Shown: positions 38,012 through 59,974, counted from the stretch's first letter. The stretch: DNA of 64,000 nt from Terriglobia bacterium (GCA_965262675.1 OZ253554.1:844496-908495), one strand, 5' to 3'. Notes: generated by a model from the sequence alone, not told the origin. Translations and numbers: made by a program.

Positions 38012-38012
38012 G

Positions 38013-38165: not shown

Positions 38166-38220
38166 TAGGGCCTGAAGGTTTCTGACGGAACTGGAAGTAA
38201 ACGCAGACGATGCGGGGGCG

Positions 38221-38340
38221 GGCCGGGGCCAGAATCCTGCGGATTCTGCTTGGGGCTTCCAGCCGGGGCCAGAATCCTGCGGATTCTGCTTGGGGCTTCC
38301 AGCCGGGGCCAGAATCCTGCGGATTCTGCTTGGGGCTTTG
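38221..38340. repeat. 3 x 40-bp identical tandem repeat, each unit carrying the palindrome CAGAATCCTGCGGATTCTG
   Basis: agccggggccagaatcctgcggattctgcttggggcttcc repeated three times; no variable spacers. Confidence 0.85.
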
Positions 38341-38952
38341 CTAATACCCGATTTCAGCGATGCCCGGCGTCAGCCGGATCTGCTCGATCCCCCAGGGAAT
38401 CGTGAACGGCGCGTCCAGGTCGACATCCGGATACCGGGAATTGACGAAACCCTCGACCAGCACGTCGATCACAACCAGGGGAACGGACAACCCGTCCAGT
38501 CGTACCTCGCGCAACTCGAACCGGCCGCGACCGTCGTCCCCGCTCAAGGCGCCCTCGGCGAAAATAGTATGCGTCCCTTCAAAAAGAGTATCGACAATGA
38601 CGTTCCCGGTTCGGTTCTCGGCGTCGAACGTCAGTTCAGTCTCGGCGGAGATAATCCCGTCCGTCACCCGGATGTCGATGGAATCGACCCGGGGAGGGAT
38701 GTCTTCTTCCATCCAGAAGAGGACGAAAGATTCCATCTCGATCTCGCTGACCCGGATCGTGTCCTGCCCCGGGGCACGTCCGGTATCGAGTTCGCGTTGT
38801 CGAATTTCCTGGATCCTGGAACCCAGAAGGTTAGCGGCTTCCGGGGAAACGGATGTGAACTCCTGAGCGGACGAAGGCAGCGAAGCGCATGACAACACAG
38901 ACACCAACGCCATGCAGACCAAACGACCTTGAACCGCCGCAGATCGAGACAT
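38341..38952 (-). CDS. hypothetical secreted protein (203 aa)
   Basis: Signal peptide LVCMALVSVLSCASLPSSAQE; no family recognised. Confidence 0.5.
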   Translation of the reverse strand: MSRSAAVQGRLVCMALVSVLSCASLPSSAQEFTSVSPEAANLLGSRIQEIRQRELDTGRAPGQDTIRVSEIEMESFVLFWMEEDIPPRVDSIDIRVTDGIISAETELTFDAENRTGNVIVDTLFEGTHTIFAEGALSGDDGRGRFELREVRLDGLSVPLVVIDVLVEGFVNSRYPDVDLDAPFTIPWGIEQIRLTPGIAEIGY

Positions 38953-38963
38953 GCCTCGATTAT

Positions 38964-39731
38964 CTATCGAATGACTTGAAAAGTCCGGCTCCAGCGTGTC
39001 TTGCGGAAAAAATTCAAACCGAGATCCAGAACTTGCTGAACTCGGGCGCCGACGCCGGTCCGCGTGTAGGTTGCCGCGTCGGCTTCGTAGGACCAGTAGA
39101 CGACCAGGGCCTTGCCGACGATGTCCTCGCGGGGCACGAACCCCCAGTAACGACTGTCGGAACTGTTGTCCCGATTGTCGCCCATCACAAAGTAGTGCCC
39201 TTCGGGAACAACGAGTTCGTCGCCATCGACATAATCCTCATACGGCCAGAACGGACGGCCATTGGTGTCGCTGTACAGCCGGTCGGGATGCGGCTGAGGA
39301 GGAAAGTAATCGCGAAAAGGGTCCACATACGTCCCCGGCGGACTGGTATGCATCTTGTAAGGTTCATCGAGCGCTTCCCCGTTCACGAACGCCTGTTGAT
39401 CGACGATACGGACACGCTCGACCGGCAATCCGACCACACGTTTCACATAGTGCTTCGTGAGATCGTCGGGATAGCGAAAAACGATGACGTCGCCTCGATC
39501 GATGTCCCGAAACGGCAACACGGCATCCAATAACGATCCGGGAGTGCCGAACGCGAACTTGTTGACGAGCAGGTGATCGCCAACCAGAAGATTCTCCTCC
39601 ATTGAAGGGGTGGGAATCTTGAACGCCTGGATGATAAACGTGGTCCCGAACAGTGCCAGGATCACGGTGATCACGAGCGATTCGAAATACTCGCGGGCGG
39701 TCGACTTGGTGATGTTCAGTTCGTCGGACAT
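38964..39731 (-). CDS. lepB: signal peptidase I
   Basis: Catalytic Ser box SMEENLLVGDHLLVNKF, RVVGLPVERV, GDNRDNSSDSRYWGFV. Confidence 0.9.
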   Translation of the reverse strand: MSDELNITKSTAREYFESLVITVILALFGTTFIIQAFKIPTPSMEENLLVGDHLLVNKFAFGTPGSLLDAVLPFRDIDRGDVIVFRYPDDLTKHYVKRVVGLPVERVRIVDQQAFVNGEALDEPYKMHTSPPGTYVDPFRDYFPPQPHPDRLYSDTNGRPFWPYEDYVDGDELVVPEGHYFVMGDNRDNSSDSRYWGFVPREDIVGKALVVYWSYEADAATYTRTGVGARVQQVLDLGLNFFRKTRWSRTFQVIR

Positions 39732-39813
39732 ACCTATCCTCTGTAACGAAACCGTTAGACACTATAGCGTTTATGACCCGTTTGTTCCAGCGATGGCCGT
39801 CCGGCGCAAAAAA

Positions 39814-40533
39814 TCAGCCCGCGGCAGAAGCATCTTCATTCCGGATCGCTTCAAGAGCGCGCATCGCCGACGCCTGCTCGGCCGCCTTCCTGGTCGTTCC
39901 GCTGCCGGAAGCGACGGGCACACCATCGATCAGAACTTCCACTGTAAAGAGTCGCCGATGATCAGGCCCGGTCTCTTCGACCAGCCTGTAGCGGGCCGCG
40001 CGGCTATCGGACTGCAGCGTCTCCTGCAATATCGACTTGAAATTGGACACGGGGCCTTCGCCGCCCGCCGCAATCTCGTCGATCTGTGTACTGAACAGCC
40101 CCCGGACGGTCTCGCGCGCGACCTCGATACCGCCGTCCAGATAAATGGCCGCGAGCACGGCCTCGAACGAGTCCACCAGGAGTGCGGGCTTGCGCCGGCC
40201 ACCGGTCTTTTCTTCGCCCTTCCCCAGTCGCAGGTACTCGCCGAGGGAAATCCGTTGGCCGTAATGCACAAGGTTGGCGGCGCTTACCAGAAAGGACTTG
40301 AGCCTCGATAGCTCACCCTCATCGAGATCCGGCCGGACGCGGTACAAACAGTCGCCAATCAGGAAACCAAGCACCGAATCGCCGAGGAATTCCAGTCGTT
40401 CGTTGTCTTCGACAGTCAGGGAATCTTGTTCGTGAGCAAACGAACTGTGAGTCAAGGCGAGTTCAAGCAGTTGGCGGCGCTCGAAACGATAGCCCAGGGT
40501 GTCTTCAAGTTCTTCGAGAGGTCTGCCGTCCAT
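39814..40533 (-). CDS. rnc: ribonuclease III
   Basis: ERLEFLGDSVLGFLIGDCLY signature plus a C-terminal dsRBD (GPDHRRLFTVEVLIDG...); start taken at MDGRPLEELEDTLGYRF. Confidence 0.9.
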   Translation of the reverse strand: MDGRPLEELEDTLGYRFERRQLLELALTHSSFAHEQDSLTVEDNERLEFLGDSVLGFLIGDCLYRVRPDLDEGELSRLKSFLVSAANLVHYGQRISLGEYLRLGKGEEKTGGRRKPALLVDSFEAVLAAIYLDGGIEVARETVRGLFSTQIDEIAAGGEGPVSNFKSILQETLQSDSRAARYRLVEETGPDHRRLFTVEVLIDGVPVASGSGTTRKAAEQASAMRALEAIRNEDASAAG

Positions 40534-40552
40534 GAGCGCACCGCGTGGGGCG

Positions 40553-41773
40553 TCAATTGCCGGGCAGCGACTGTCCAACGGCATCGATGAGTTCTTCCAT
40601 CCCGTCGAGATCTCCATGAACCCGTTCGTAGACCCGAATCAGTCCATCTCGGGCTTCGGTGCCGGGATACCCGAGGTATACCGCGCGGGCCAGGGCCTCG
40701 ATTGCTTCGGCGCCCTTCTGATCGTTGGCGTAGGCCACGCCCAGCCGGTAGTAGGTTGTGGAGTCGCGCCCGTTTGAATCCAACGCCGCCAGGTACTCTG
40801 CCTGAGCATCCGCAAACCGGCCCCGGTCGAAGTCAATCAGGCCCAGGGCGTTGCGTATCCGGGAACGCAAATCGGCTTCTTGCTCGGGCGGCAGGACGCT
40901 CCCTTCCGGGCCCGACACGATGGAATCCAGGGTCTCGAGCGCTTGGGCGGCATAACCTTCGGCCTCGGTCCTTCGATCCGCCCGCGAACCATCGTCCGAG
41001 GGCAAACTCTCGGCAATCGTTGTCGACATCGTGATCAATGTGAACAGATCGTCGGGAAACAGTTGCAGGGCGCGCCGGCCGTAGTCGATGACTTCGTCCG
41101 TGTTCTGCAATCCCCCGTGTGCCACCATCAGGTTCCGAAAGAAAAAACCCTCGCTGGCACGATGACGCACGGAAGCTTCCGCATACTCTGGAGAATCCGG
41201 CGCCGGGGACGGCGCCGTGATTGAACGCGCCCGCAGGTCGGACGCGCTCTCCAACCCCAGTTCGGCGAACCGAACGGCATCCCTGTAATTACCCAGTCCA
41301 TTGTGGGCCTCGGTCAACGATTCGTAGTACGACACCTTGATCCGTTGGTACTGGAGTTCGGCCTCGGTGAAACCCGGAAGTGTTTCAGCATCCGGCAACG
41401 ACGCCAGGCGGCCTTCCATAAAGGCGGTCTCGGCTTCGAGGGCAGTCTCGGCAATTCCGATGACCGCCGCGAAGTCGCCCATCGACGCAAAAGCGTTCCA
41501 ACGAGCGCGTAGAACGACGGGACGAAGTTCCGATTCGGGATAGCGAACAAGAAACGACTCGGTCAGGTCGAGCCGCGCCGCCATATCGGCCTCGTCCTGA
41601 ATGTCCCTGAATGCGTCGGCTTCGAATTCCGACCGGACCATCGGTGTGAACGGATTGGACTGGGCCAGGGCAAAACTCGCCAGAGCGGCGATCGCCGCCG
41701 ACAGCGCCAGCATCGAACGGCACCGTGCCACGACCGGCCCGCCCGATTCCCTGCCTGGCAGCTTCAACATCAT
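40553..41773 (-). CDS. TPR-repeat protein with a signal peptide
   Basis: Multiple TPR-like helical repeats. The upstream 170 codons of ORF 40553..42286 overlap the next gene and are not coding. Confidence 0.6.
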   Translation of the reverse strand: MMLKLPGRESGGPVVARCRSMLALSAAIAALASFALAQSNPFTPMVRSEFEADAFRDIQDEADMAARLDLTESFLVRYPESELRPVVLRARWNAFASMGDFAAVIGIAETALEAETAFMEGRLASLPDAETLPGFTEAELQYQRIKVSYYESLTEAHNGLGNYRDAVRFAELGLESASDLRARSITAPSPAPDSPEYAEASVRHRASEGFFFRNLMVAHGGLQNTDEVIDYGRRALQLFPDDLFTLITMSTTIAESLPSDDGSRADRRTEAEGYAAQALETLDSIVSGPEGSVLPPEQEADLRSRIRNALGLIDFDRGRFADAQAEYLAALDSNGRDSTTYYRLGVAYANDQKGAEAIEALARAVYLGYPGTEARDGLIRVYERVHGDLDGMEELIDAVGQSLPGN

Positions 41774-41807
41774 GAACTCGTCCCGGCGGCGCGAACCAAC
41801 CCCGATC

Positions 41808-43325
41808 TCAGAGTCCGCACCCGCCGCCGAACGGCGCTTCGATACCGTTTCGCGCCTCAGCCTGCGCGCCGTTGTTGTCGTCGCCGAGACCGGCGCCGGC
41901 TTCGTATTGAACCAGAGCGGCCGCCCGGTCGCATTCGATGTCCAGAATCCGGCCGAGGAATACGTGAGACCATGCGCGCATTGGAAGTTCGGCGGATTCG
42001 CTTTCGATGGTCTGCGCGAAATAGTCCTTCGCCATCTCGGAATCGCCCTCGCGGCTCGCCAGCAGAGCCAGCCCGTACAGCGCCGACCCATTCGCATCGT
42101 CGTATTGCGCGAGCACCGTTTCGAAAGCGGTCCGCGCCGTGTTGTCGTCTCCCGAGTTGAATGCGGCCTGAGCCTCAAGCAGAAGGTCCTGAACCGGATT
42201 CGACGGCGGTGGCTCGGGCACTTCGGCGCGGGGGCCCAGGTCAGGCGCCAGGGCGATCGCATGGAACCGCTCATCGAAGCGCTCACGCTCAGCCTGGAGT
42301 TCTATCTCCAACGCCATTTCGGGAAAATATTCGCGAATCCCGACAGGAGTCTGCTCGAACCGCGCCAGACTATCCATGAAATAGGGTGTCAACAGCAAAC
42401 CTGACCGGTAAGCCGTATCCACAAGACTGTCAACGTTGTCCGCATCTCCGTCGATTCGCATCTCCACGGCCTGAATCAGCGATTCGGTGACCATGACCTC
42501 GAAATCGTCGGTATATTCCGATCGAACTCCTTCGATATCTCGAACCCAGTCCACCATGGCGTTGCTCTCGACCAACTCCTCGCGGCTTCTCCGGACAATC
42601 GCGTCGAGCGCCACGTGGAGATAGCCGTGCCGCACGTCCTCAACCGGATTCTGAGCGTCATAGCCGAAAACCAGATAGAGATTGTCGGTGTAGTTCCTGA
42701 CATGCACGCTGTTGACTGGCGCCGAAAGTTCCAGATATGCGATCAGGCGCCGGCCATCGATTGTTCCCGTCTGCGCCCGGATATACGCCCGGGTCTCAAC
42801 GACGGACTGACGCAACGGCCCCGCCATGACATCCAGAACCTGGTCATAGACCGGCGCCAGTTGTACCCACATCTGGCTGATGTCTGCTTCAAAGTAGAAT
42901 TCGTTGAGCAGTGGGAGGAAGCCATCGAGATCGCGTGCGTCGGGGGGGATGAACAGGTCGTCGGTGACGAAATCCATATCGGGCGGATAGGTCAGATTCA
43001 GGGCAAGGGAAACGTACCGCGCCAATTCGTCTTCGTGTGGCGTATCTCCCCTGTTTTCGGCGTAATATTCAGCCAGCCGTGTTCGAAGGTCGGGATCGAT
43101 GCTTACCAGTCGTTCCCGGACCGCTTCACGCACGGGATGATACTGGGGTGCGAACTCGACGTCGAACCCGGCAACGTTCAGGGCCGCGGTAACGGTAAAC
43201 ACGCGAATGTCGCGGTCGACCGTGGCGCTGGACTGAGAATCGTTAACGATCTGAGCGTCCGCGATGAACAAGGTTCCCCCAAGGACGGACACGACCGAGA
43301 CAGCTAAAATCCAATGACGCAGCAT
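41808..43325 (-). CDS. hypothetical secreted protein with a C-terminal TPR-like region
   Basis: Signal peptide MLRHWILAVSVVSVLGGTLFIADAQ chosen as start; no family recognised. Confidence 0.55.
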   Translation of the reverse strand: MLRHWILAVSVVSVLGGTLFIADAQIVNDSQSSATVDRDIRVFTVTAALNVAGFDVEFAPQYHPVREAVRERLVSIDPDLRTRLAEYYAENRGDTPHEDELARYVSLALNLTYPPDMDFVTDDLFIPPDARDLDGFLPLLNEFYFEADISQMWVQLAPVYDQVLDVMAGPLRQSVVETRAYIRAQTGTIDGRRLIAYLELSAPVNSVHVRNYTDNLYLVFGYDAQNPVEDVRHGYLHVALDAIVRRSREELVESNAMVDWVRDIEGVRSEYTDDFEVMVTESLIQAVEMRIDGDADNVDSLVDTAYRSGLLLTPYFMDSLARFEQTPVGIREYFPEMALEIELQAERERFDERFHAIALAPDLGPRAEVPEPPPSNPVQDLLLEAQAAFNSGDDNTARTAFETVLAQYDDANGSALYGLALLASREGDSEMAKDYFAQTIESESAELPMRAWSHVFLGRILDIECDRAAALVQYEAGAGLGDDNNGAQAEARNGIEAPFGGGCGL

Positions 43326-43373
43326 AATGGTGATGATATCAGGAGCCGGGCAGGCATGGCATTCGGAGAGTGA

Positions 43374-44675
43374 ATGAAAGCAACATACGTTGAAGATGTC
43401 GGAAATCGCATCGGCGAAAAGGTCACGCTGCGTTGCTGGCTTCACAACAAGCGATCCAGCGGGAAACTACGCTTTCTTATCGTTCGTGATGGAACGGGAT
43501 ATCTGCAGGCCGTGGTCTTCAAGAAAGCCGTGTCGGAAGAAACCTTCACGGCAGCAAGCGACCTGACACATGAGTCGTCGTTCACCGTCACCGGCACGAT
43601 CCGCGCGGACGAACGCGCGCCCGGCGGATGCGAGATGGACGTGGAGTCGATCGAACCGCTTCAGATCGTCCCGACCGATGACGAGTTTCCGATCACGCCC
43701 AAGGAGCATGGCATTGAATTCTTGATGGACAAACGCCATCTGTGGATCCGGTCCAGCCGGCAGCGTGCCGTCCTTAAGATTCGACACGAGATTATCCGGG
43801 CCGCGCGAGAATTCCTGGACGACGATGGGTTCACGCTGTGCGACACGCCGATCCTGACCCCGGCAGCCTGTGAGGGAACGACGACATTGTTTCCGGTCAA
43901 TTACTTCAAGGACCAGGCGTTCCTGACCCAGTCGGGCCAGCTCTACAGCGAAGCCACGGCGATGGCTCTGGGAAAGGTGTACAACTTCGGGCCGACGTTT
44001 CGGGCCGAAAAATCCAAGACACGACGGCATCTCACCGAGTTCTGGATGATCGAGCCCGAAGTGGCATTCGCGCAGGTCGAAGACATGATGGACCTGTCCG
44101 AGCGGTTCATCACGCACATCGTGGGCCGGGTCCTGGAGCGGCGCAAAGACGAACTCGAAACCCTCGAGCGCGATCCGGCGCCGCTGGAAGCCGTCGCGCC
44201 CCCCTTTCCTCGAGTCGCGTACGACGAAGCCATCGAGATTCTTCAAAAGCAAGGCTCCGCGATCGAGTGGGGCAGCGACTTTGGCGGCGGCGACGAAACC
44301 GTCCTTTCGAAGGAATTCGACAAACCCATCATCGTTCATCGCTATCCGTCGGCCATCAAGGCGTTTTATATGGAACCCGACCCCGTCCGGCCGGAAGTCG
44401 CGCTGTGTCTCGACGTCCTGGCGCCGGAAGGCTACGGCGAAATCATCGGCGGCGGCCAGCGGACGGCCAGCTACGATTTACTGCTGCAACGACTGGATGA
44501 GCATGGACTCGAAAAAGAGGTCTTTGACTGGTATCTGGATTTGCGGAAGTACGGATCCGTGCCGCATGCCGGGTTTGGAATGGGAATCGAGCGAGTCGTG
44601 GCGTGGATCTGCCATCTCGACCACGTGCGCGAAACGATTCCGTTTCCGAGGATGCTTCACCGGTTGAGGCCCTGA
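43374..44675 (+). CDS. asnS: asparagine--tRNA ligase (class II aaRS, AsnRS-type)
   Basis: N-terminal OB anticodon-binding domain, class II motifs, [24 protein letters not shown] and GGGQR; 433 aa. Confidence 0.8.
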
Positions 44676-44718
44676 AGGGCGTCAGTGGGATATTTCGCGA
44701 AAGGAAGCGGGCATCAGT

Positions 44719-45219
44719 GTGAGCATTGTGGAAATTGAGATTCGACGGGTGGAGTGGTTCAACGGTGGACTGTTCGCGGAAATCCTCTCTACCGCCGCCC
44801 GAAACCTTGTCCTGGCGCTGGAAGCTGAAATGTTGCAACTCTATCCTGGAGATGAGGCAACCGACCACTTCATGTTGGGCGCCGATGAGGTTGCCGTCGG
44901 TCGGGGAGTCTTCATGATTGCGTACAGCGCAACCACCCCAGTCGCCTGTGGCGCCATTCGACTGCGCAACCCCGAGACCGCCGAGATAAAAAGGATGTAT
45001 GTGATTCCCCAAGCGCGCGGCTAGGGGATAGCAGGCCGCCTGTTGGATGCTCTTGAATCGGAAGCACGCCGCCTTGGCGCCAGGAAGGCCGTGCTGGTGA
45101 CTGGGCCGAGGCAGCCTGAAGCGATCTCACTCTATTCAAGAGCCGGGTTCGTCGAGACCGAAGGCTTTGGAAAGTTCAAGGACCATCCGCTGAGCTATTT
45201 CATGGGAAAGCAACTGTGA
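44719..45219 (+). pseudogene. GNAT N-acetyltransferase interrupted by an in-frame TAG at about 45022
   Basis: ...RMYVIPQARG * GIAGRLLDALESEARRLGARKAVLVTG...: the stop falls exactly in the acetyl-CoA-binding R/Q-x-x-G-x-G/A motif. Confidence 0.55.
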
Positions 45220-45240
45220 TGCTCCGGGCCGGTTACTCCA
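45100..45240. repeat. 140-bp direct-repeat copy A (GNAT 3' end); copy B is at 46366-46510
   Basis: About 93% identical copies flank the TA cassette; listed ORF 46163..46495 is an artefact spanning copy B. Confidence 0.8.
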
Positions 45241-45296
45241 TCACGGTCACATCATCAAATAAGGTCACTGGGAAACACGTTTAAGCTTTTCCTGAT

Positions 45297-45509
45297 ATGA
45301 TCTGGACCATGAGCATCAAGGCCGAGTACAGGAACGGGGTCTTCGAGCCCCTGGAGGAAGTGAGCAACACCGATCCGGGAAAAATCTACCAGGTCTTCTC
45401 GGAGGATGAGTTGAGGCGACTCGCCGAGGACCTGCCGTGGCTAGAGGGCTCGGAGCGGAGCTTCGAGTTCTGGGAGAATAAGGAGGATGCCGTCTACGAC
45501 AGTTTATAG
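45297..45509 (+). CDS. DUF104-type antitoxin
   Basis: MSIKAEYRNGVFEPLEEV... matches the AF2212/DUF104 antitoxin N-terminus; overlaps the toxin by 23 nt. Confidence 0.55.
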   Translation: MIWTMSIKAEYRNGVFEPLEEVSNTDPGKIYQVFSEDELRRLAEDLPWLEGSERSFEFWENKEDAVYDSL

Positions 45510-45837
45510 ACAGGGCAACATCGTTCTGGTTTCATTCCCCTTCACCGACCTCACCTCGTCCAAAAGACGTCCCGCGCTGATCATTTCCCCGGATTCCTTC
45601 AACGCTGCCGGAGAGGACCTCGTGCTGGCCGCGATCACCTCGCACATCACGGACGACCCCAATGCGATCCAACTCTCCGACGCGGACTTTGCCGAAGGCC
45701 GGCTTCCGAAGAGATCGATCGTCAAGACGACTAAGCTGTTCACGATGCACTCGTCGCTCATCGTAAAGAAAGTCTGCGCGCTCAAGAGAGAGAAGACAGA
45801 AGAAGCCCTTCGGTCGGTGCGGGAATTTTTTTCATGA
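45487..45837 (+). CDS. MazF/PemK-family toxin
   Basis: RQGNIVLVSFPFTDLTSSKRRPALIISPDSFN. Confidence 0.7.
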   Translation: MPSTTVYRQGNIVLVSFPFTDLTSSKRRPALIISPDSFNAAGEDLVLAAITSHITDDPNAIQLSDADFAEGRLPKRSIVKTTKLFTMHSSLIVKKVCALKREKTEEALRSVREFFS

Positions 45838-45959
45838 GCGAAACGAGATCTCGCAAGCCTTCCTGGACTCAACGGGAAAAACTGATGCTGTCGCACCGAT
45901 TTCCCGTTTGATTCTCATGTGGCGCGGTTAGTGACCATGCCTCTAAAATTCAATGACAT

Positions 45960-46217
45960 ATGGCGATTCAAGCCCTCGCAGACGGCAAATTCCGAATGAT
46001 TTGGCACGACGATCTTGTAACGGCGATATTGGCAGTGACTTCAAGGATGGCCGATCCTGCGTTGCGGAAAAATGATACCGCAATCCAACAGACACGCAAG
46101 AACGCCTCCGATGTCCTTGCAGACCATCCGACGCTCAAGAATCTGTTGCCGACAAGCGACCAATGGCATCTGTACAATTTGTCCCCCGCCCCACGATTTC
46201 TTTGGACAGTGATTTGA
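45960..46217 (+). CDS. hypothetical protein (85 aa)
   Basis: ORF only; inside the repeat-flanked segment. Confidence 0.3.
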   Translation: MAIQALADGKFRMIWHDDLVTAILAVTSRMADPALRKNDTAIQQTRKNASDVLADHPTLKNLLPTSDQWHLYNLSPAPRFLWTVI

Positions 46218-46671
46218 GAGAATACCGAACAGGAGGATCACGATGTCCAGAGGAAGAAATACAGAATCCGGGGGCTTCGCAGGGAGCCCGTAGGGCGACC
46301 GAAGCGGCCCCGGATTCAGCGCGACGCGGGAAGGGCCGTTGGTCGGCCCGGCGGCAGGTCACGGTCGTGCTGGAGACTGGGCCGAGGCAACCTGAAGCGA
46401 TTTCACTCTATTCAAGAGCCGGGTTCGTCGAGATCGAAGGCTTTGGAGAGTTCAAGGACCATCCCCTGAGCTATTTCACGGGAAAGCAACTGTGATGCTC
46501 CGGGCCGCCGCCATTCGGGAGGTCCAGCGACCGGTTGATGTCAACGAAAGAAAAGCGTGATATCGGGAGTGCTTCAAGTCAAATTGCGTAACTGGCAACT
46601 CGACACCGATTGTCGCTGGGTACTGTCGGATCATGTCTGACGCTTACGCTTGGACCGCCATCACAGTTTTC

Positions 46672-49600
46672 TCAGGAATTATGCGGATTAAGAACATCCT
46701 CCAGACGCTCGCGTGCCGCTCGGCTGAGCCGGGCGATTCCTAACGCCCGTGCAAGTTCAACTACATCGCCATTGAGGTCTAGTGTCTCGTCAATGTGTTG
46801 CAATTCTTCCGCGCAGATGTGCTCGGGTTTGCGCATCTCCTCGTCTCGGTTAGCATAGCGCGCGGGGACCAACCGATTCTTGACCGTGCCCTTTCGCCAA
46901 AAGAAGAGGCCGACATCCTCGTTCGTGCGCCCCCGCCGGTTCTTGGCGAGGCGCAACACCAGATTGCGAATCTGACGTCCGGCGCGTTGGAAATCGTGAT
47001 GACGGGCAATTCGACGGCTCAGAATATCCTCATGGATCGGCCCTTCGATATCGACAATGTGATCGATCATCGCTTTAAGCCTCCGTTCGTACTCCTCGTC
47101 GTAGAAGCGCGATGGATCGGGCACAAACGCACCACCAGCAAGACGACTTTTGACGTAACGATGGGTTTCCTCCAGAGCGGTCTCGCTCGAAAAGACGAGA
47201 GACGGCTGCTCCTCGGCGGAATTTACCTGGGCGGCCTTTGCGGTCGCACCCTGGAGGCGGTGCCCCTCATTTCCCGCACGTATAGAGTAAGTCCGTTTGA
47301 CGTCGCGTTGCCGCGAGGACGTCTCCTTGGAGCCGTTTTCGTAAGGTAGGACGCCATCGACGTCTATAGGGCTGTGATCTTCAGAAACCGGCTCTTTGCG
47401 CTCCCCGTCGTCTCTTGCAGCTTTGCGGCGCTGTCTATCCTCCTCCAGATGCTCCCTCAACTGGCGATCGAGCTTTTCGAGCGCCCCCACCTTGTTGATC
47501 CACCAGTCCGTTGACCATACGCGGAAGAGGGTCCAACCGAGTCCCTCCAGCACTTCCTGACGGATCTTGTCGCGTTCCCGGGCGAAGGCGGAACTGTGGT
47601 ACATCGCCCCGTCGCATTCGACGCCCGCGAGATAGACCCCGGGCTCGTCTGGATGGACGACTCCGAGATCTATCCGGAACGAACTGACGCCGATCTGCGG
47701 GTGGATCGTCCACCCTTTCTCACGAAAGGACCGTGCAACGGCAATTTCGAACGGCGATTCGAAATCTCCAAGCGAACCGTGAACACCTGCGCCAAGCGCT
47801 ATCGGCCCGCGTTCGGCATATTCAAGAAAATGCTTCAGATCCTTCACCGCTTCCGCGTTCGTGCGGGAAAGGTCGATCTTATCGGGGTGCAGTGTCGCGA
47901 AAACGACCATCTCAGAACGCGCTCGAGTCAATGCAACATTGAGGCGCCTTTCGCCCCCCTCCCGGTTCAAAGGACCGAAATTCATAGACACATGGCCGGA
48001 TTGGTCCGGCCCATACGTAACGCTGAAGAGGATCACGTCGCGTTCGTCGCCCTGAACAGTCTCGAGGTTCTTGACGAATACCGCCTCCTGATGGTTCTCA
48101 TCGAAAGCCCATTCGATGCTCGGATTGGCGGCCCGCGCCCTATCCAACAGATCCTCGATTAGCGACTGCTGTTCTGTATTGAAAGTGACGACACCGATGG
48201 TGGCCTGTTTCACCTCAGGTTCGTCCGAAGTGAGGCGCCGGACGACCTCAGCGACGATCACTTTCGCCTCTCGTTCATTGTGTCGCGCCTTGCCACGGGC
48301 ATAAAACCCGTCGGGCCGGACCAACCGAACGCCGGAATCCGGACGGATCGGCGCCGGGAAGGTGATGAGGCTGTTGTCGTAGTAGCGACTGTTCGAGAAG
48401 GCGATCAAGCTTTCCCGGCGGGAGCGATAGTGGAGATTGAGCGTGCATTCCGGGATGCTGGAGCTTCGCAATTCGTCCAGGATACTCTCCAGATCACCGT
48501 CATAGTCGATGTCACCGTCAGGATCGTCGTCAGCGCGGTTGAAAAAGTTGGTCGGCGGCATCTGCTTCGGATCGCCTGCGACAATCACCTGCATCCCGCG
48601 CGCTATCGAACCCACGGCATCCCAGACCGTGATCTGCGACGCCTCGTCAAAAATCACCATGTCGAACAAGGCTTGTTCCGCCGACAGATATTGCGCGACG
48701 GAAAGCGGCGACATCATCAGACAAGGGGTGAGCTTGGTTACCACATCGGGTGCCTCTTGCATCAGTTGGCGTACCGGCTTATGACGCTTTTTCTTGTTGA
48801 TCTCGTGCCGCAAGACGCCCCATTGGGAACTTTTCTTCACATCATCCTGAACCGGGATCTGGCCGCTCAGTCCGGCTGCGATATAGGCTGCCGTAATCTT
48901 TTGGAAGGATGCGTCGATCTGCCGGAACTTCTCGATCGTATCCATATGTTCGGCGGTCGAGAATGTACGTAGCACCTCGTCTTCGCCAATCACCATAGAC
49001 GACCACCAAGCGCAATACGCGGCCTCAAACGTCTCCAGAATCTCGTCAATGGGAACACGCCCCTTCTCGATCCCGTCTACCAGCGGTGCAAGGTCGAGAT
49101 CCATCGCCTCTGTCCGCCGCTTTCGCCAGGCACACCAGTCATGCAACTCCGCTCGCCGGGCAATGATCGTCTCGGCAGTCTCACACAATGCCTCAAGCGC
49201 CCGGTCTTTCTCCGAAAAAGCCTCGCGCACGACGCGTCCGGCGCGCTCTTCGAAGGCCCGGCTTGCACTCTGCAACGTGTCGAGTGTCTTCAAATACTCC
49301 GCTGCCGCGCGGCCCACAATTGCTTCCGGGGCAAGCAGGTCATTGCCGTCCTGCAGAAGCATCCGCACCTTGCGACGCACCTCCGCTAGCGCCTGCGCAT
49401 CGTCGGCGAGCCATCCGACCGATGTGCGCGCTCGATCGCCCAGATCTCGCAACGCCTGCGCGGCCTGCGGATCGGTCGTGTGCGCCTCCCACTCCTTGAG
49501 CGAGGAAAGTTGCTTGTCGAGGCGATCGATCGCCTCGCCCTCCTCGCGAAGTGAGGTCAGCAACGGGGCGTCGCGCGCAGGATTCGGCTCGCCTCGGGCC

Positions 49601-52600
49601 CCACCTTTGCGCATCGATTTGATGACGGCACGCTGGGCGAATATTTTTTTGGGCCACCAAGTACGTTCCGCCTCTGCCCAGTGCAACGCGACCTCTTGAC
49701 CGTCGGTCGCCCTCCAGGCCATCGGATCATAAGGACAGCTCAACCGAGCCTGCGCCGCAGCATAAGCTTTGAGGCGGTGAACTGCCTCTTCCAGCGCTTC
49801 GATCCGGTCCTGACCGTCTGGCTCCAGCGCGTAGGCGGTCTGTCTACGATATGACTCCGTCAACACGCGCGCGAGATCAGCGAGCGCATCGAGGCGTCTC
49901 ATGGTCTGGTCGGGCAGCGTCAAACCGACGGTCTCACAAAGCGCGCGCGCAGCGTGATCGGCAGCCTTCGCGGCGGCGGAGAGCGCGGCAGCGCGGCCCA
50001 CCAGTTCACCCTCCCACTGCGGTGTCCATCCTGAGCTCGCTACGAGTTGCAAAGGGCTTTCCGTGATCTCGCCCACAGCATGGGCCTGAATCTTCAACAT
50101 TTCGGCCGCCGCACGCATCGCGGCGAGTTGCGCCTCGTCATGCTGATCGGCTTTCGGCCAAGAAAGATTGATCCGCGAGCCCAACTCTTCGTCGCGCACC
50201 TTCACGCCAATCGCGTAGTGGGCGGTTAGACCGTTCCGCCGCCTGCGGTGCATATGATCAATGAATCGATTGAGTTGGTCGCGTAAGATGCGTAGTCGCT
50301 CCGCCTCCTTCTCCCAAACCTCGGCCGTGCGGCTTTTTCCAGTGGACCAAGCGGTTTCGAGTTGATTTAACACGTCCGCCTTTTTGGCCTTGTTGGAATG
50401 GAGTTCCAGACAGAAGCGCCCCAGTCCGATGTCATCGAGACGACGGTAGACGACGTTGAGCGCCGCCGTCTTCTCCGAGACAAAGAGAACCTTCTTTCCC
50501 TTTCCGAGAAAGTGCGCGATCAGATTGCCAATAGTCTGGCTTTTGCCCGTGCCGGGCGGGCCGATGATTATGAAGTCCTTGCCCCTATCCGCCGTCGCGA
50601 CCGCCGCCATCTGGGACGAATCCGCCGGCAGCGGGACAAGCAGTTCGGAAGGCTTATAGTCGCGATCGATCCGATCCGTCTCGACGAAGGCGATCTTGCT
50701 CCCATAGGCCTCGCGCGGGGTATCGATCAGGTGCCGGACAACCGGATTCTCCCGCAGTGCATCCGTCCGATCGATCAGATCCTTCCACATCAGGAACTTC
50801 GCGAAGGAAAAATGGCCGAGCACCACGTCCTCCACGACCTCGAAGCCCGGCGCGTCCTTGACTGCCTTGCGCACCTTTTTCCAGATACCATGGACGTCGA
50901 CCCCACTTTCGTCCTCGGGAAGTGCTCCGTCAATGCCTTTGATATCGATTTCGAAATCCTTACGCAGCATTTCGAGGAGGGTGGTGTTAAAGCGCGGCTC
51001 GTCGTCATGCGCAAGCATCTTGACGCCGCTACGGACCGACTGGCGCTGCAGGGTGACGGGCATCAAGATGAGGGGGGCACGGAAGCGATGGTCTTCCTTT
51101 TCATCCCGCTTCCAGAGGAGGAAGCCGAGGGCGACGTAGAGCGTGTTCGCCCCGCCCTCCTGCAGCGCTGTCCGGGCCTTGCGGTAGATTTCGACAGCGC
51201 GCTTCGAGAGGTCCTCTGGTGGAAGATCGACCAACACTTGACCCCGATTCAGCGCGTCGCGGGCGTACTCCTCTGTGATTAGTTCGCCGGTGCGTTGTTC
51301 ATGGAGATCAACGTCCTGTGCTTGGGAAGTTGCCTGCCGCAAAACCTGGATCGAGATCTTGCTCCCATCTGCAAGTTTGTCTTCGAGTAGCCCTGGATCG
51401 GGGCAGACGATCTTCAGGCTTGCCTTGGTCGATTTGTGATTCAGAAGTGGATTGCGCGCGGAGAGGTCAAGCAGCTTGCGTTGCCAACGCTCCAAACGAC
51501 CGGCCGGAGTCTCCGGCTTCTGTTCCGTGACGTCCTCGTCGAATCGGGGCAACGCCGGCGCCTCCTCCATTGGAAGCTCGACGGCCTCAATCCCCTGGCC
51601 GTCTGGACCATTCGTAGGCGTCTCCCCTTTCAGCCCCAGCGGCAAAATCCGATGCGCACGAGCGCGACGAATGTCGACCGCGACGCTGAACGTTTGGTCG
51701 CGCTCTGGGGCGACCTGCTCCATTGCGCGAGCAATCGCTTTCGAAAAAGGCGGCGCCGGATACGAAGTGGCCAGCGTCGTTTCAATCAGGATGAGTTCCT
51801 GCAATTGATAGCGCTTGCGGAGCGTCTCGGCGTCATCAATCACAATGGTGGTGAGCTCTTCCGGTTGTAGCCAGACGCCGACCATGGCATGGTCCTTCGG
51901 CATCGCGATGATGGGATTGAGGCCCGCTTGCTCCAACACAGAGGCGAACAGCATCGTGGTGTCGAGACATGTTGCAATCTTGCGCTCCCAGATCTGGCTT
52001 GGCAGGCGGATTTTCTGGCCGTCGCGCTCAAAGCTGGCCGGGGGAACAGCATAGACGATCCCGAGATTGGCGATTGCCGTGTAGATAGCTGACGCCATTT
52101 CCCAAATCCGGTGCCGACTGCCGGAGCTATAGCCGTCGAGGCCGTCGGGCTTGCCAGCTTGGCGCAGAAGCTTTGAGGCCTTGTGCAAAATCCGGTCAAC
52201 TGCCGGGTCATTCGGCATCGAAAAAGCTGCCAAAAGCTCCGGCATATAGCCCGAACCACCCCATTCATTGAAAGCGAGAATCTCGACGGGCTTAGTCACC
52301 TCGGTCAGCACCTCACCCCCAGTCTCGACTCGGATCGAGACCGCCCCACGCAGTGAGTCGGAGAGGTCAAGCAGGAAACCGCCATCGAGATCGATATCAC
52401 GATGCCTGACCGAAACAACCCCAGCCGCGGCTATGCGATCGATGCGCCAGATCTTCGGCTTTATGAAGCCCGGATTCGCACTAAGCGTTACCAGAACGTC
52501 GTCGAGACGATTCTCCTCGTCCAGGTTTTCAATTCGGAGATCCCGCAACACGGGATATGCACTTTGGTGGCAGGCGAAATTCAACTTCGCCGCAATTTCA

Positions 52601-52638
52601 CAATGAATTGCGACGGTTCGATCTTTGGCGTCGTCCAT
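46672..52638 (-). CDS. 1988-aa DUF4011 / Upf1-like SF1 helicase (AAA_11/AAA_12) / REase (Vsr/DUF559-like) / DUF3320 protein (Hhe-like architecture)
   Basis: Walker A IIIGPPGTGKSQTIGN, motif VI VALTRARSEMVVF, endonuclease core GVECDGAMYHSSAFARERDKIRQEVLEGLGWTLFRVWSTDWW, and a C-terminal DUF3320-like tail. Confidence 0.85.
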   Translation of the reverse strand: MDDAKDRTVAIHCEIAAKLNFACHQSAYPVLRDLRIENLDEENRLDDVLVTLSANPGFIKPKIWRIDRIAAAGVVSVRHRDIDLDGGFLLDLSDSLRGAVSIRVETGGEVLTEVTKPVEILAFNEWGGSGYMPELLAAFSMPNDPAVDRILHKASKLLRQAGKPDGLDGYSSGSRHRIWEMASAIYTAIANLGIVYAVPPASFERDGQKIRLPSQIWERKIATCLDTTMLFASVLEQAGLNPIIAMPKDHAMVGVWLQPEELTTIVIDDAETLRKRYQLQELILIETTLATSYPAPPFSKAIARAMEQVAPERDQTFSVAVDIRRARAHRILPLGLKGETPTNGPDGQGIEAVELPMEEAPALPRFDEDVTEQKPETPAGRLERWQRKLLDLSARNPLLNHKSTKASLKIVCPDPGLLEDKLADGSKISIQVLRQATSQAQDVDLHEQRTGELITEEYARDALNRGQVLVDLPPEDLSKRAVEIYRKARTALQEGGANTLYVALGFLLWKRDEKEDHRFRAPLILMPVTLQRQSVRSGVKMLAHDDEPRFNTTLLEMLRKDFEIDIKGIDGALPEDESGVDVHGIWKKVRKAVKDAPGFEVVEDVVLGHFSFAKFLMWKDLIDRTDALRENPVVRHLIDTPREAYGSKIAFVETDRIDRDYKPSELLVPLPADSSQMAAVATADRGKDFIIIGPPGTGKSQTIGNLIAHFLGKGKKVLFVSEKTAALNVVYRRLDDIGLGRFCLELHSNKAKKADVLNQLETAWSTGKSRTAEVWEKEAERLRILRDQLNRFIDHMHRRRRNGLTAHYAIGVKVRDEELGSRINLSWPKADQHDEAQLAAMRAAAEMLKIQAHAVGEITESPLQLVASSGWTPQWEGELVGRAAALSAAAKAADHAARALCETVGLTLPDQTMRRLDALADLARVLTESYRRQTAYALEPDGQDRIEALEEAVHRLKAYAAAQARLSCPYDPMAWRATDGQEVALHWAEAERTWWPKKIFAQRAVIKSMRKGGARGEPNPARDAPLLTSLREEGEAIDRLDKQLSSLKEWEAHTTDPQAAQALRDLGDRARTSVGWLADDAQALAEVRRKVRMLLQDGNDLLAPEAIVGRAAAEYLKTLDTLQSASRAFEERAGRVVREAFSEKDRALEALCETAETIIARRAELHDWCAWRKRRTEAMDLDLAPLVDGIEKGRVPIDEILETFEAAYCAWWSSMVIGEDEVLRTFSTAEHMDTIEKFRQIDASFQKITAAYIAAGLSGQIPVQDDVKKSSQWGVLRHEINKKKRHKPVRQLMQEAPDVVTKLTPCLMMSPLSVAQYLSAEQALFDMVIFDEASQITVWDAVGSIARGMQVIVAGDPKQMPPTNFFNRADDDPDGDIDYDGDLESILDELRSSSIPECTLNLHYRSRRESLIAFSNSRYYDNSLITFPAPIRPDSGVRLVRPDGFYARGKARHNEREAKVIVAEVVRRLTSDEPEVKQATIGVVTFNTEQQSLIEDLLDRARAANPSIEWAFDENHQEAVFVKNLETVQGDERDVILFSVTYGPDQSGHVSMNFGPLNREGGERRLNVALTRARSEMVVFATLHPDKIDLSRTNAEAVKDLKHFLEYAERGPIALGAGVHGSLGDFESPFEIAVARSFREKGWTIHPQIGVSSFRIDLGVVHPDEPGVYLAGVECDGAMYHSSAFARERDKIRQEVLEGLGWTLFRVWSTDWWINKVGALEKLDRQLREHLEEDRQRRKAARDDGERKEPVSEDHSPIDVDGVLPYENGSKETSSRQRDVKRTYSIRAGNEGHRLQGATAKAAQVNSAEEQPSLVFSSETALEETHRYVKSRLAGGAFVPDPSRFYDEEYERRLKAMIDHIVDIEGPIHEDILSRRIARHHDFQRAGRQIRNLVLRLAKNRRGRTNEDVGLFFWRKGTVKNRLVPARYANRDEEMRKPEHICAEELQHIDETLDLNGDVVELARALGIARLSRAARERLEDVLNPHNS

Positions 52639-53094
52639 GCTGCCCCCCCTGAAAGTAGATCGTCCATCGTTACGCCGACATTCCCCAAATGACTTACAAA
52701 TTCGGCCAGATGTAGCTAAACGGATCCCGTATCGGAACCAAGAACAACGTCTCGATCGGATGGAGCAAGTTTTCGACTGCTGGACCGCCTGAAACGACCA
52801 TTCAGATTGAGCCGATTCCGTTCCATCCAGAAACCTTTCTCCTTCACACGTCTCCGTTCTGTCGTCCCCTTAGATTGCAACCATGGCCAATGGTCGCAAT
52901 ATGTCGATCCCCCGCAAGATTTTCAGAAACAGATCAGTCTGCACGGCAACCTCAGCAAATTGGAAGGTGACGTATATCACCAATCAATCGGGCGCACGTC
53001 CTGAAGACATATTTAGTTGCCGTACGTTGTAAATCTTCTGACTTCATCCGACAGTACGCAGCAGCAATCGGAGTCGAGTTCCCAGCTAAACACT

Positions 53095-53275
53095 CCGTTG
53101 AAACGCACTCGATCTCCGTGCCCCGTTGCTGGGGGAGTAATGCCGCCGAGATGTTGAGGGTGACGTCTGACTTGCCGCGATCGGTGGACTCCAGTACGGC
53201 AGTCACCACCTTGTCAACCTCGAGGTTGACAAGGCCCCGCTTCTCCAACTGAACGACGCGTGGAAACCTCAACAT
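53095..53275 (-). pseudogene. internal fragment of a paralogous FtsX/MacB-type permease
   Basis: KVVTAVLESTDRGKSDVTLNISAALLPQQRGTEI aligns with KVVTAVLESTHRGTPDFTVTIPAALLAQQRRTQTI of the intact permease 57438..58682. Confidence 0.5.
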
Positions 53276-57437: not shown

Positions 57438-58682
57438 TCACTCGTATCGAAGGGCGTCGATGGGATCGATACGGGACGCCTTCATCGCGGGATACACGCC
57501 GAACAGCACGCCCACCGAGACCGACACGCTGAAAGCGACCACGACGGAGGTCGTGGTCACAATCGTTGTCCAGTCCGCTGTCCGTGCAATCAGTCCGGCC
57601 AGAATGAACCCGAAACCGATACCGATGACGCCTCCACCGCCCGAGATCAATACCGATTCGGTGATGAACTGCCGGGCGATGTCCAATCGGCGGGCGCCGA
57701 CGGAACGGCGGATGCCGATTTCGCGAGTCCGTTCGAGCACAGTCGCAAGAACGATGTTCATGATACCGATACCCCCGACGAGCAGAGAAATCGCGGCGAT
57801 TGCAACCATCACGTAGGTGAAGATCGTCTGCGTACGCCGTTGCTGGGCCAGCAGCGCCGCCGGGATGGTGACGGTGAAGTCCGGTGTGCCGCGATGTGTG
57901 GACTCCAATACCGCGGTCACCACTTTTGCGATCTCGACGCTGTCGGCGCCCTCGCTCAATTGAAGTTCGATACCGGCAAGCTCGTCTTTCAGGTTCGAGC
58001 CGGGATCGTGGAATCGGTACTCGAAGGTGTTGATCGGGACATAGACGATGTTGTTGATGTCCGGCAGCGAACCGCCTTCGCTCTGGGAACTCTCCATCAA
58101 CTGCTCTTCGAGCACACCGATGACTTCGAGCCAGGTGTCGTCCACCTTGATGAATTCCCCGAGAGCCGGCCGATAACCGAACAGCGCGACTTTCGCGGAT
58201 TCCCCGAGGACACCGACGGCGGCACTCGACCGATTCGCGCGGTCGTCGAAGAAAGCGCCCTCCGCGAAGGCAAGGTTGTGAATCGCGCTGTAAGCGGGCT
58301 CCACTCCATACAGCTCGGGCGGATCTTCGGACGGCTTGGGCAGCAGCGTGGCCGGCCGCATCGTCTTGCGCACCGACAGCGCTTCAATGGCATCGACGTT
58401 GGTCGCCAGGATGCGGGCGTCGCGGTACGTGAGGCCGGGCGAGGACTGGCGGCGCAACTGGAACTCCTGAGAGCTGTCGGCGGCCTGCGAATCGATCAAG
58501 ATGTTTCGCACGCCCAGCAACTCAATGAAACGGAGCGACTCCTCACGTGCCCCGGCGCCAATCGACATCATTCCGATAACCGATCCGACGCCGAAGACAA
58601 TGCCCATCGCGGTCAACAGAGTGCGCGCCTTCTGCGCCGTGAGATTATCGAGGGCCTGGCCAAAGTCCGAGATCACCATCAT
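57438..58682 (-). CDS. FtsX/MacB-type ABC permease (414 aa, no ATPase domain)
   Basis: N-terminal TM, large periplasmic domain, and C-terminal 3-TM FtsX module IRRSVGARRLDIARQFITESVLISGGGGVIGIGFG. Confidence 0.85.
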   Translation of the reverse strand: MMVISDFGQALDNLTAQKARTLLTAMGIVFGVGSVIGMMSIGAGAREESLRFIELLGVRNILIDSQAADSSQEFQLRRQSSPGLTYRDARILATNVDAIEALSVRKTMRPATLLPKPSEDPPELYGVEPAYSAIHNLAFAEGAFFDDRANRSSAAVGVLGESAKVALFGYRPALGEFIKVDDTWLEVIGVLEEQLMESSQSEGGSLPDINNIVYVPINTFEYRFHDPGSNLKDELAGIELQLSEGADSVEIAKVVTAVLESTHRGTPDFTVTIPAALLAQQRRTQTIFTYVMVAIAAISLLVGGIGIMNIVLATVLERTREIGIRRSVGARRLDIARQFITESVLISGGGGVIGIGFGFILAGLIARTADWTTIVTTTSVVVAFSVSVSVGVLFGVYPAMKASRIDPIDALRYE

Positions 58683-59974
58683 CGGGAGAGCGCTCCAAGG
58701 GGGCCATCCGATCGTCGGCCGCCGCCGGTCTCGACCCCGGGCCTGGCGAGAGCGATCGTCACGCCCTCGTCGATGCCCGTGATCACGGCCTGACTCTCGG
58801 TGCGGCGAATCAACTGCACTTCGTCGGTGAGATAGCCCTCAGGCGTTTGCCGGTAGACGTACCACCCTCCCCCGCTTTCGAATAGTGCCTGAGATGGAAT
58901 CCACAACACGTCGTCGAGAGTCTCTACGTTGATCAGGATGTCCGCGCTCATGCCCGGGCGTAAATCCGGCGCGGTTTGGTCGAGAGCAATGCGGCAGTTG
59001 AAAGTGCGATTCCACGCGTTCCCGGACGAGCCGCCGAGCGCACTGATGTGGCCCAGGAACTCCCGCTCCGGCGTCGCCACAGGCCGGACAATCACCTCCT
59101 GCCCCACCTCGAGGTAGGCGCGGTCCGTTTCAGTTATCTGGGCACTGACCTCCCAGCGGCTCATGTCCGGGATGCGCGCTACCACTTGTCCGGGACGCGC
59201 AGTGTCGCCGGGTTGGAAATGTGGCAGTTCCATTCCCGAAAAAATAAAGCTGAGGCCGTTCAGGTTTTCGGCAAGCTGGACGTAGCCCGAAGTTTCGGCG
59301 CGTAGCGTCAGGTCGGCCATCGTGCGGCGCGCCATGTCTGCCTTCGTCGACGCTTCGTTCACCGCGGCACGCCGGACGTCGAGACTCGCGCCGGTCGTCG
59401 CTTCGCGATGCTCCAGGTCCTGAACGGCCTGCGCGTGTCTGTTCTCGGCGCGTTCCAGCGCGATCTCGTTCTGGCGCCCCTGGATGGCCGGCAGGACTTC
59501 ATTCTTTCTAATTTCCAGCCTTGCGATCCGGAGGTCGGCTTCGGCGGTCGCCCCCAGGAGCCGTGCCTGCTCCAACGCCACTCGGGCTTCGGCTTCGGCT
59601 TGCAACAGTTGCTGTTCGGCTTCCGCGAGATCCGCTTCGGCCTCGATAAGGTTGTATTCCTGCTCACCCGCGTCGAATTCGGCGACGATTCCTCCGGCAT
59701 CCACCAGTTCACCGTCGTCCCGCAGGAACGTAATCGGCAATTCGGGGACACCGGCCATCGGTGCGGTCAGGGATTCAGCGCCACCGCCCTGAAGTTCACC
59801 CTTGGCCGGCACGGTAATCGCCACCAATCCGCGCCGTACCGTGGTCGTGGGCATTTCGGCATCGCCCGACTCCGCGGTCGCTTCGATCACGGCTCGAAGC
59901 CCCCGGGACAGCCCTGCTCCAATACCGACAATCGCCGCGGCGAGGGCCATTAACACGATCATCCGTTTGATCAT
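58679..59974 (-). CDS. HlyD-family membrane fusion (periplasmic adaptor) protein
   Basis: Signal anchor, biotinyl-lipoyl-like half-domains around a long coiled coil, and a beta-barrel; 4-nt overlap with the permease. Confidence 0.75.
   Translation of the reverse strand: MIKRMIVLMALAAAIVGIGAGLSRGLRAVIEATAESGDAEMPTTTVRRGLVAITVPAKGELQGGGAESLTAPMAGVPELPITFLRDDGELVDAGGIVAEFDAGEQEYNLIEAEADLAEAEQQLLQAEAEARVALEQARLLGATAEADLRIARLEIRKNEVLPAIQGRQNEIALERAENRHAQAVQDLEHREATTGASLDVRRAAVNEASTKADMARRTMADLTLRAETSGYVQLAENLNGLSFIFSGMELPHFQPGDTARPGQVVARIPDMSRWEVSAQITETDRAYLEVGQEVIVRPVATPEREFLGHISALGGSSGNAWNRTFNCRIALDQTAPDLRPGMSADILINVETLDDVLWIPSQALFESGGGWYVYRQTPEGYLTDEVQLIRRTESQAVITGIDEGVTIALARPGVETGGGRRSDGPLGALSR

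Follow-up and report, generated by a model that had tools for sequence, protein, structure and literature searches.

A giant helicase-nuclease gene of the ProA family, probably a defence gene, in a strain-variable hotspot of an acidobacterial chromosome

The DNA analysed here, referred to as the window, is a stretch of 64,000 nucleotides from a Terriglobia bacterium (GCA_965262675.1 OZ253554.1:844496-908495). Its minus strand carries a single open reading frame (ORF) of 1988 codons, the giant gene, which had been picked out in an account made from the DNA alone (the sequence-only reading) as a candidate antiviral gene resembling the anti-phage system Hhe. That account gave the ORF exactly the coordinates and length found here, and the domains it described, in the order DUF4011, superfamily 1 (SF1) helicase, Vsr-like endonuclease and DUF3320, were all present in a Pfam scan. 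The gene and the regions of its product are as follows (E, expectation value).

46672..52638, minus strand: giant ORF, ATG start, 1988 aa, 0 internal stops; helicase-nuclease assigned to the ProA / PDC-S37 family
52264..52614, minus strand, residues 9-125: immunoglobulin (Ig)-like beta-sandwich; no Pfam match, from the AlphaFold2 model
51634..52251, minus strand, residues 130-335: transglutaminase/papain-like domain with a putative Cys224-His250-Asp268 triad
50965..51477, minus strand, residues 388-558: DUF4011 (Pfam E 2e-50), a hallmark in common with Hhe
50359..50625, minus strand, residues 672-760: first part of helicase domain RecA1 with Walker A GPPGTGKSQ (693-701); Pfam AAA_19/AAA_30/AAA_11, Protein Data Bank (PDB) matches IGHMBP2 and Upf1
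48739..50358, minus strand, residues 761-1300: all-alpha insert of ~540 aa that splits RecA1, from the AlphaFold2 model
47839..48738, minus strand, residues 1301-1600: remainder of RecA1 and RecA2; Pfam AAA_11 and AAA_12
47458..47751, minus strand, residues 1630-1727: Vsr-like PD-(D/E)xK nuclease (MTES_1575 / DUF559-related; Pfam E 2e-33)
47134..47448, minus strand, residues 1731-1835: variable linker, 8-22% identity within the family
46675..47133, minus strand, residues 1836-1988: DUF3320-containing tail (Pfam DUF3320 at 1844-1892, E 1e-18)

The profiles by which the sequence-only reading could be checked, namely DUF4011, AAA_11, AAA_12, MTES_1575 and DUF3320, were thus all matched. AAA_11, AAA_19 and AAA_30 match the Walker A region (~675-750), a second AAA_11 match lies at 1312-1363, and AAA_12 covers residues 1385-1581 (E 4e-18). 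The motifs that had been quoted for the protein were located at residues 693 (GPPGTGKSQ), 1331 (DEASQ), 1568 (VALTRAR) and 1672 (GVECDGAMYH). Two parts of the protein had been overlooked, the N-terminal module of Ig-like and transglutaminase-like domains and the large helical insert within the motor.

By its profile matches the giant gene is assigned to the ProA family, which is the PADLOC candidate PDC-S37, a sister of Hhe. The NCBIfam equivalog model NF058533.1 ("anti-phage protein ProA") was passed with 2190.9 bits against a cutoff of 1500, with residues 20-1949 aligned to profile positions 1-1875 of 1903. The Hhe equivalog model NF042953.1 was failed, with 830.5 bits against a cutoff of 2000 and a best stretch of only residues 1109-1754. 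In PADLOC the top model was likewise PDC-S37, a single-gene defence candidate (1251.1 bits, residues 381-1984 against profile positions 9-1531 of 1550), and the runner-up was Hhe with 555.6 bits over a partial stretch. The same outcome, ProA model passed and Hhe model failed, was obtained with homologues from Achromobacter, Pseudomonas, a conjugative Raoultella plasmid and a Mesoflavibacter metagenome-assembled genome (MAG). The giant protein has the same architecture as this family and differs from it in nothing structural. Its nearest known relative is 84% identical, and the acidobacterial copy itself has no database record.

The comparison with Hhe can be made most directly with WP_021314612.1, a PGAP-annotated Hhe of 1911 aa from a Klebsiella IncFIB plasmid. 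Both proteins have DUF4011, a split Upf1-like SF1 helicase with a large insert, an MTES_1575 Vsr-like nuclease and an ECDG motif, and this core order, together with 37% core identity and the second place of Hhe in both PADLOC and NCBIfam, is what speaks for the proposal of the sequence-only reading that the giant protein is Hhe. However, the Klebsiella protein aligns only at 464-792 and 1145-1729, and Hhe matches cover only 46% of the giant protein. In the Klebsiella Hhe, DUF4011 starts from residue 30 and there is neither an Ig and transglutaminase-like module nor a DUF3320, whereas in the giant protein 387 residues precede DUF4011 and the DUF3320 tail is present. The shared core order therefore stood and the family did not: at the level of family membership the identity with Hhe was ruled out by the failed cutoff, the ProA match and the differing architecture, and we regard it as hardly credible.

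The architecture itself was described by Anantharaman et al. in 2013 (PMC3710099), who predicted a modification-independent restriction activity for it. The order they gave, with a transglutaminase-like domain, an SF-I helicase, an MTES_1575 Vsr nuclease and DUF3320, annotated as a winged helix-turn-helix, and with no linked methyltransferase, is the same here. Their architecture has an N-terminal HEPN domain, whereas the giant protein has an Ig-like beta-sandwich at its N terminus; Pfam gave no HEPN match, even when residues 1-380 were scanned with E allowed up to 10, and the AlphaFold2 model shows a beta-sandwich at residues 9-120.

For the catalytic parts we relied on a conservation alignment of 46 true family members, from which four antisense-ORF artefacts were excluded. 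Down to ~38% identity, the true members retain the helicase motifs, the residues of the nuclease and the putative C224/H250/D268 triad. All 46 keep the Walker A lysine, and motifs II (DEASQ), III (GDPKQMPP), V (TVQGDERD) and VI (VALTRAR) are conserved. The motor is an Upf1-like SF1B helicase with motifs I, II, III, V and VI intact. The complete Upf1-like helicase of the sequence-only reading is in this respect borne out, both by the motifs and by the best structural matches. Sequence searches of the PDB gave matches confined to the generic helicase core, namely to Sen1 (E 3e-7), IGHMBP2 and Upf1, none of them stronger than E 3e-7, and therefore no solved structure of a close relative is on record; the DUF4011 profile matched none of the PDB sequences. 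An AlphaFold2 model of residues 386-1585 shows an all-helical insert at ~705-1225, modelled confidently (predicted local distance difference test, pLDDT, 85-93), which splits RecA1 and has no match in Pfam. Foldseek matches of this model (Aquarius, IGHMBP2, SETX, Dna2 and Upf1) confirm only the Upf1-like class. The helicases of this class (Sen1/SETX, IGHMBP2, Upf1, Dna2, Aquarius) share the RecA1/RecA2 core and motifs I-VI, and Dna2 likewise joins a nuclease to its motor, but the similarity is distant (E ~1e-7; 15-18% identity in fold alignments), and the giant protein differs in its RecA1 insert of ~540 aa, in the type and position of its nuclease and in its extra terminal modules.

The PD-(D/E)xK core of Vsr/DUF559 type that had been described for the protein was found as well, with its acidic and histidine residues: D1657, E1674, D1676 and H1681 are intact here and conserved family-wide. 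E1674 aligns with the glutamate of the Hhe ECDG motif. In Hhe, the substitution E1731A in the Vsr domain abolishes defence, and since the ECDG motifs align, Hhe E1731 is presumably the counterpart of E1674.

The N-terminal region was approached through structure prediction. Residues 1-385 have no significant Pfam match, with only a trace of DUF553, a transglutaminase-like family, at E 0.26. The AlphaFold2 model of the region (74 homologues, pLDDT 78.9) consists of the beta-sandwich followed by an alpha/beta domain at 133-330, in which Cys224 stands at the start of a helix (224-237). Cys224 and His250 are found in 46/46 true members, and at position 268 there are 39 members with Asp and 4 with Glu, in an alignment that takes in Achromobacter and Pseudomonas members ~38-40% identical. 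The transglutaminase-like domain, which is absent from Hhe, is probably active. Searched alone, the N-terminal module matches 3944 representative clusters, and among the top 150 cluster matches it always lies at or near the N terminus of proteins of 1.7-2.4 kaa, or of fragments. Variants of this arrangement were also seen (P0330, P0372, P0365, P0265): in some the module follows an additional RNase_T (DEDD) exonuclease or an unassigned stretch of ~170 aa at the N terminus, and a 1740-aa subclass stops right after the Vsr domain and has no DUF3320.

A tentative extension of these findings, which we think rather doubtful, is that the module is an active cysteine peptidase or deamidase coupling protein sensing or cleavage to the helicase-nuclease, and that the Achromobacter and possibly the Pseudomonas copies represent a "fixed" core immunity gene. 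On this reading a phage protein might be the activator or the target of the module. If it were true, ProA-type proteins would be three-enzyme immune machines, mechanistically distinct from Hhe. The same family-wide Cys-His-Asp triad could also support an abortive-infection toxin, with the transglutaminase-like peptidase as the main effector, or with metabolic depletion, and with the helicase-nuclease serving as sensor only. Anantharaman et al. (PMC3710099) suggested that the cleavage of proteins adds another layer of defence; Hhe is countered to a modest degree by NAD+-regenerating phage genes, and one phage gene is toxic when co-expressed with Hhe. However, Hhe defends without a transglutaminase-like domain and needs its nuclease glutamate, and few parts of the ProA family are as well conserved as the nuclease, so that we consider an abortive-infection toxin improbable.

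Conservation is unevenly spread along the protein. Mean identities to distant members are highest, at 47-73%, for DUF4011, the RecA parts, the transglutaminase-like domain and the Vsr nuclease. Among the folded regions, those that evolve fastest are the DUF3320 tail (27%), the Ig-like domain (28%) and the helical insert (29%). This pattern fits, and does not prove, catalytic cores joined to putative variable recognition surfaces.

The family is large and widely spread. A search with the whole protein gave 2797 proteins at E <= 1e-10. Full-length relatives with identities of 61-84% were found in Desulfurivibrio, Desulfoluna, Kiloniellales, Thiodiazotropha and Chlorobiaceae, and a species-level genome scan added the Mesoflavibacter MAG (67%) and Microbulbifer, Tistlia, Halopseudomonas and Woeseiaceae (59-70%). 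Copies 59-84% identical from unrelated phyla have no flanking family in common with the window and almost none between loci. Where the window is compared with its two nearest relatives, DNA homology (83-86%) does not reach beyond -81 and +18, at the borders of the ORF. Since close proteins occur in unrelated phyla without common flanks, and since homology ends at the borders of the ORF, the giant gene appears to have been horizontally acquired.

The neighbours of the close copies are typical of defence islands or mobile DNA. In Halopseudomonas the order is HsdR, YhcG nuclease, HsdM, HsdS, the homologue and Mrr, and in Microbulbifer HsdM and HsdS lie upstream. Other copies have GmrSD_N (L002) or AAA_13 (L061) as a neighbour, and the nearest relative (L001) lies among IS66/IS4 transposases, ArdC, a BrnT/BrnA toxin-antitoxin (TA) pair and a PLD-family protein. 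In a plasmid collection 580 records match; in 55 of them a single match spans no less than 80% of the query, with identities reaching 45%, and on the conjugative Raoultella plasmid the homologue stands beside IncFII repA and IS110. Such homologues on conjugative plasmids beside replication genes and insertion sequence (IS) elements, the setting of the nearest relative among ArdC, IS66 and TA genes, and the TA modules around the window copy could also indicate competition between mobile elements, in which the same translocate-and-cut chemistry would serve plasmid or element exclusion or the stabilisation of its carrier over phage defence. At the sequence level this cannot be distinguished from anti-phage defence, but the sister Hhe is documented against phages and the curated family name is anti-phage, and we consider element competition unlikely.

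The setting of the giant gene in the window could be compared with that in related genomes. The named matches of the AsnS protein (43374-44675) are to Acidobacteria and Terriglobia MAGs, the best 97% identical, and the host is therefore an acidobacterium. The flanking features are as follows (GNAT, acetyltransferase family).

44719..45219, plus strand: GNAT acetyltransferase gene with one in-frame TAG at 45022-45024; hotspot boundary
45232..46362, plus strand: insert of 1.13 kb; AF2212-like antitoxin candidate at 45297-45509, PemK/MazF toxin at 45487-45837
45087-45231 and 46363-46507: 145-nt direct repeat (94%), a duplicated GNAT 3' end, bracketing the 1.13-kb insert
52952..53275, minus strand: remnant of a MacB/FtsX-type permease gene, the right flank of the inserted giant gene

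Two contigs with a 97% identical AsnS (L064 and L065) are collinear with the window over 38169-45223 at 92-94% DNA identity, through LepB, RNase III, a TPR protein, AsnS and GNAT, and this collinearity ends at ~45221-45223, right after the GNAT stop codon. Past this point the window continues with the TA-bearing insert, the giant gene and the permease-gene remnant. One of the close relatives has instead HigB/HigA, a 1742-aa beta-propeller protein and a DDE transposase, the other a second GNAT, DUF5677, IstB and a 1719-aa protein, and in the 10 kb examined past GNAT the giant gene was absent from both. In relatives with 88% AsnS identity, coaE and folD follow directly after asnS. The different cargo after GNAT means that the giant gene lies in a strain-variable hotspot, which agrees with the accessory location proposed in the sequence-only reading. 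The surroundings described there were also real, namely the TA modules (PemK/MazF and HigB/HigA), the GNAT gene disrupted by a stop, the direct repeat and the permease remnant. No partner gene, methyltransferase or other, was found beside the giant gene, and the 830 nt upstream of its start hold only the permease remnant and short ORFs without family support. Taken together, the giant gene appears to be an intact, horizontally acquired single-gene unit in a hotspot downstream of asnS-GNAT in an acidobacterial chromosome.

We therefore think it probable that the giant gene encodes a defence helicase-nuclease of the ProA family; this is a general statement, and our confidence in any single step of its mechanism is far lower. 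The family, the islands, the plasmids and the sister relation to Hhe are all consistent with the candidate antiviral role suggested from the DNA alone, and further support comes from the members that bear an additional N-terminal nuclease domain, for example RNase_T. Hhe itself protects against lambda, T3, T7 and PhiV-1, several T7 DNA-metabolism genes behave as candidate triggers of it, and one Bas63 gene is toxic only in its presence.

Several points weigh on the other side. The anti-phage status of ProA rests on a curated hidden Markov model name and on its candidate status in PADLOC, and a source publication could not be traced; full-text literature searches found no paper naming ProA or PDC-S37 and no mechanism for ProA, as the sequence-only reading had anticipated in calling the mechanism of such proteins uncharacterised. 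In the model of residues 386-1585, DUF4011 and the RecA domains were poorly modelled (predicted template modelling score, pTM, 0.40). What is said here of the substrate (DNA or RNA), the polarity, the trigger and the part played by the transglutaminase-like domain is inferred. Furthermore, ~25 Achromobacter species carry a ~40%-identical member in a partly conserved chromosomal context with ordinary neighbours, those in common (L012-L055) being a penicillin-acylase-like gene, a TonB-dependent receptor and lipoproteins, and a large DUF4011 gene has been reported to be core in all isolates of P. aeruginosa. Johnson et al. describe this large DUF4011 gene, with a small hypothetical gene preceding it, as a core marker of the P. 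aeruginosa defence hotspot cDHS1. The P. aeruginosa gene fits either a housekeeping role or a fixed "core" defence, and the lineage-fixed copies, which are part of the family, may have either a non-defence role or a fixed "core defence" role. At five Pseudomonas loci (L035, L039, L040, L041, L060) a member 45-47% identical is preceded by the same hypothetical gene of ~300 aa, and this pair resembles the "small hypothetical + large DUF4011" boundary of cDHS1.

These lineage-fixed copies, together with a motor resembling Dna2, Sen1 and IGHMBP2 and a nuclease of the Vsr repair family, are the case for a housekeeping genome-maintenance helicase-nuclease that would process, for example, stalled forks, R-loops or mismatches, much as Dna2, Sen1 or Vsr do. 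Orthologues in syntenic core positions, which the sequence-only reading had named as the mark of such a role, were found neither in this lineage nor in the close clade; in Achromobacter the ~40%-identical members do show this arrangement in part. A housekeeping role is hard to reconcile with the absence of the gene from the same locus in two close relatives, with copies 59-84% identical that lack synteny across phyla, with homologues on conjugative plasmids and with copies within islands of restriction-modification, Mrr and GmrSD genes. It also sits poorly with N-terminal effector add-ons that differ among members and with a fast-evolving Ig domain, insert and tail, and the core DUF4011 gene of P. 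aeruginosa itself borders a defence hotspot. We accordingly give the housekeeping role little credence.

On the reading as a defence protein, the three enzymatic modules (the Cys-His-Asp triad, the SF1B ATPase/translocase and the Vsr-like nuclease) each appear to have intact catalytic motifs, and a mechanism can be proposed. The protein would act without dependence on DNA modification and would recognise a nucleic-acid state associated with infection, such as foreign DNA or replication and recombination intermediates. The likely recognition surfaces would be the winged helix-turn-helix of the DUF3320 tail, DUF4011 and the fast-evolving helical insert. The SF1B motor would then load and translocate 5'->3' by ATP, as in Upf1, Sen1, IGHMBP2 and Dna2, and this translocation would deliver the Vsr-like nuclease to a substrate that it would cut. 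The Ig and transglutaminase-like module may be a sensor or regulator that binds or processes a protein, or a second effector of peptidase type.

The giant gene should accordingly be labelled ProA/PDC-S37 and not Hhe. It adds an acidobacterial example to a very large family that spreads between phyla and onto conjugative plasmids, and its locus is a clean strain-variable hotspot after asnS-GNAT in this lineage. With an architecture published since 2013, it is an ordinary family member that a specialist would expect. Since its transglutaminase-like domain is probably active, it would be a reasonable candidate for mechanistic work.

The giant gene is also surrounded by an imperfect inverted repeat.

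46589..46645: left arm, 27-83 nt beyond the stop codon of the giant gene
53032..53088: right arm, 394-450 nt upstream of the start codon and ~25 nt from the end of the homology of the permease remnant (53113)

The arms are 57 nt long and 81% complementary; blastn aligns 52 nt of them at 82.7%, and with gaps admitted the repeat extends to ~100 nt. No further copy of the arms was found in the window or in any fetched locus, and there is no recombinase gene nearby. The repeat could be the relic of an insertion, an inversion or an invertible segment. An integron cassette was rejected, the arms and junctions folding no better than shuffled sequence (z -0.03 to 1.37) and showing no attC-like hairpins. 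A transposon shared with the relatives was rejected likewise, on the grounds that DNA homology to the nearest copies stops at -81/+18 of the ORF and that the arms are not copied elsewhere. Repeats also flank close copies of the gene at three other loci (positions counted from the gene): in L002 a 74-nt direct repeat (94.6%) at -324..-251 and +542..+615, in L057 a 174-nt inverted repeat (77.6%) at -526..-353 and +1027..+1200, and in L034 a weak 81-nt direct repeat. In sequence these are unrelated to each other or to the repeat of the window, and they may be a recurring trace of insertion or a coincidence of repeat-rich islands.

At the left boundary of the hotspot, the TAG of the GNAT gene lies within the ARGQGIA motif, where the 94%-identical relative has CAG (Gln), and the rest of the frame is intact; the stop would be a recent nonsense mutation or a sequencing error. 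Both close relatives have a second partial or whole GNAT copy at the same spot, and the GNAT 3' end may be a recurrent site of insertion or recombination. At the right flank, remnant DNA at 53113-53223 is 76.6% identical to 57827-57937 of an intact permease gene (57438-58682); this gene, of which the source of the remnant was a paralogue, heads an operon with three HlyD-like adaptor genes (58679-62324).

A scan for promoters and terminators gave nothing above shuffled background, and no tRNA genes or Rfam families were found in the window. A strain-specific segment of 2.3 kb (35878-38162), which replaces ~540 nt of the two collinear contigs, carries a PemK/MazF toxin (36072-36416) and HigB/HigA (37396-38011) and is a second small variable spot with TA modules. 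Close to it, at 38222-38341, are three tandem 40-nt units of a short interspersed repeat family that also occurs at 29534-29594. The same family is present in reverse orientation, in 2-4 spaced copies, at the post-GNAT hotspot of the relatives (11950-12213 in L064 and 11841-12194 in L065).

Finally, with a simple ORF caller the homologue was split or shortened at three loci: L032 (847 + 1170 aa), L056 (1080 + 945 aa, with three small ORFs between) and L006 (1346 aa). This suggests frameshifts, or in L056 an insertion within the gene, and the copies concerned may be decaying genes or assembly errors.

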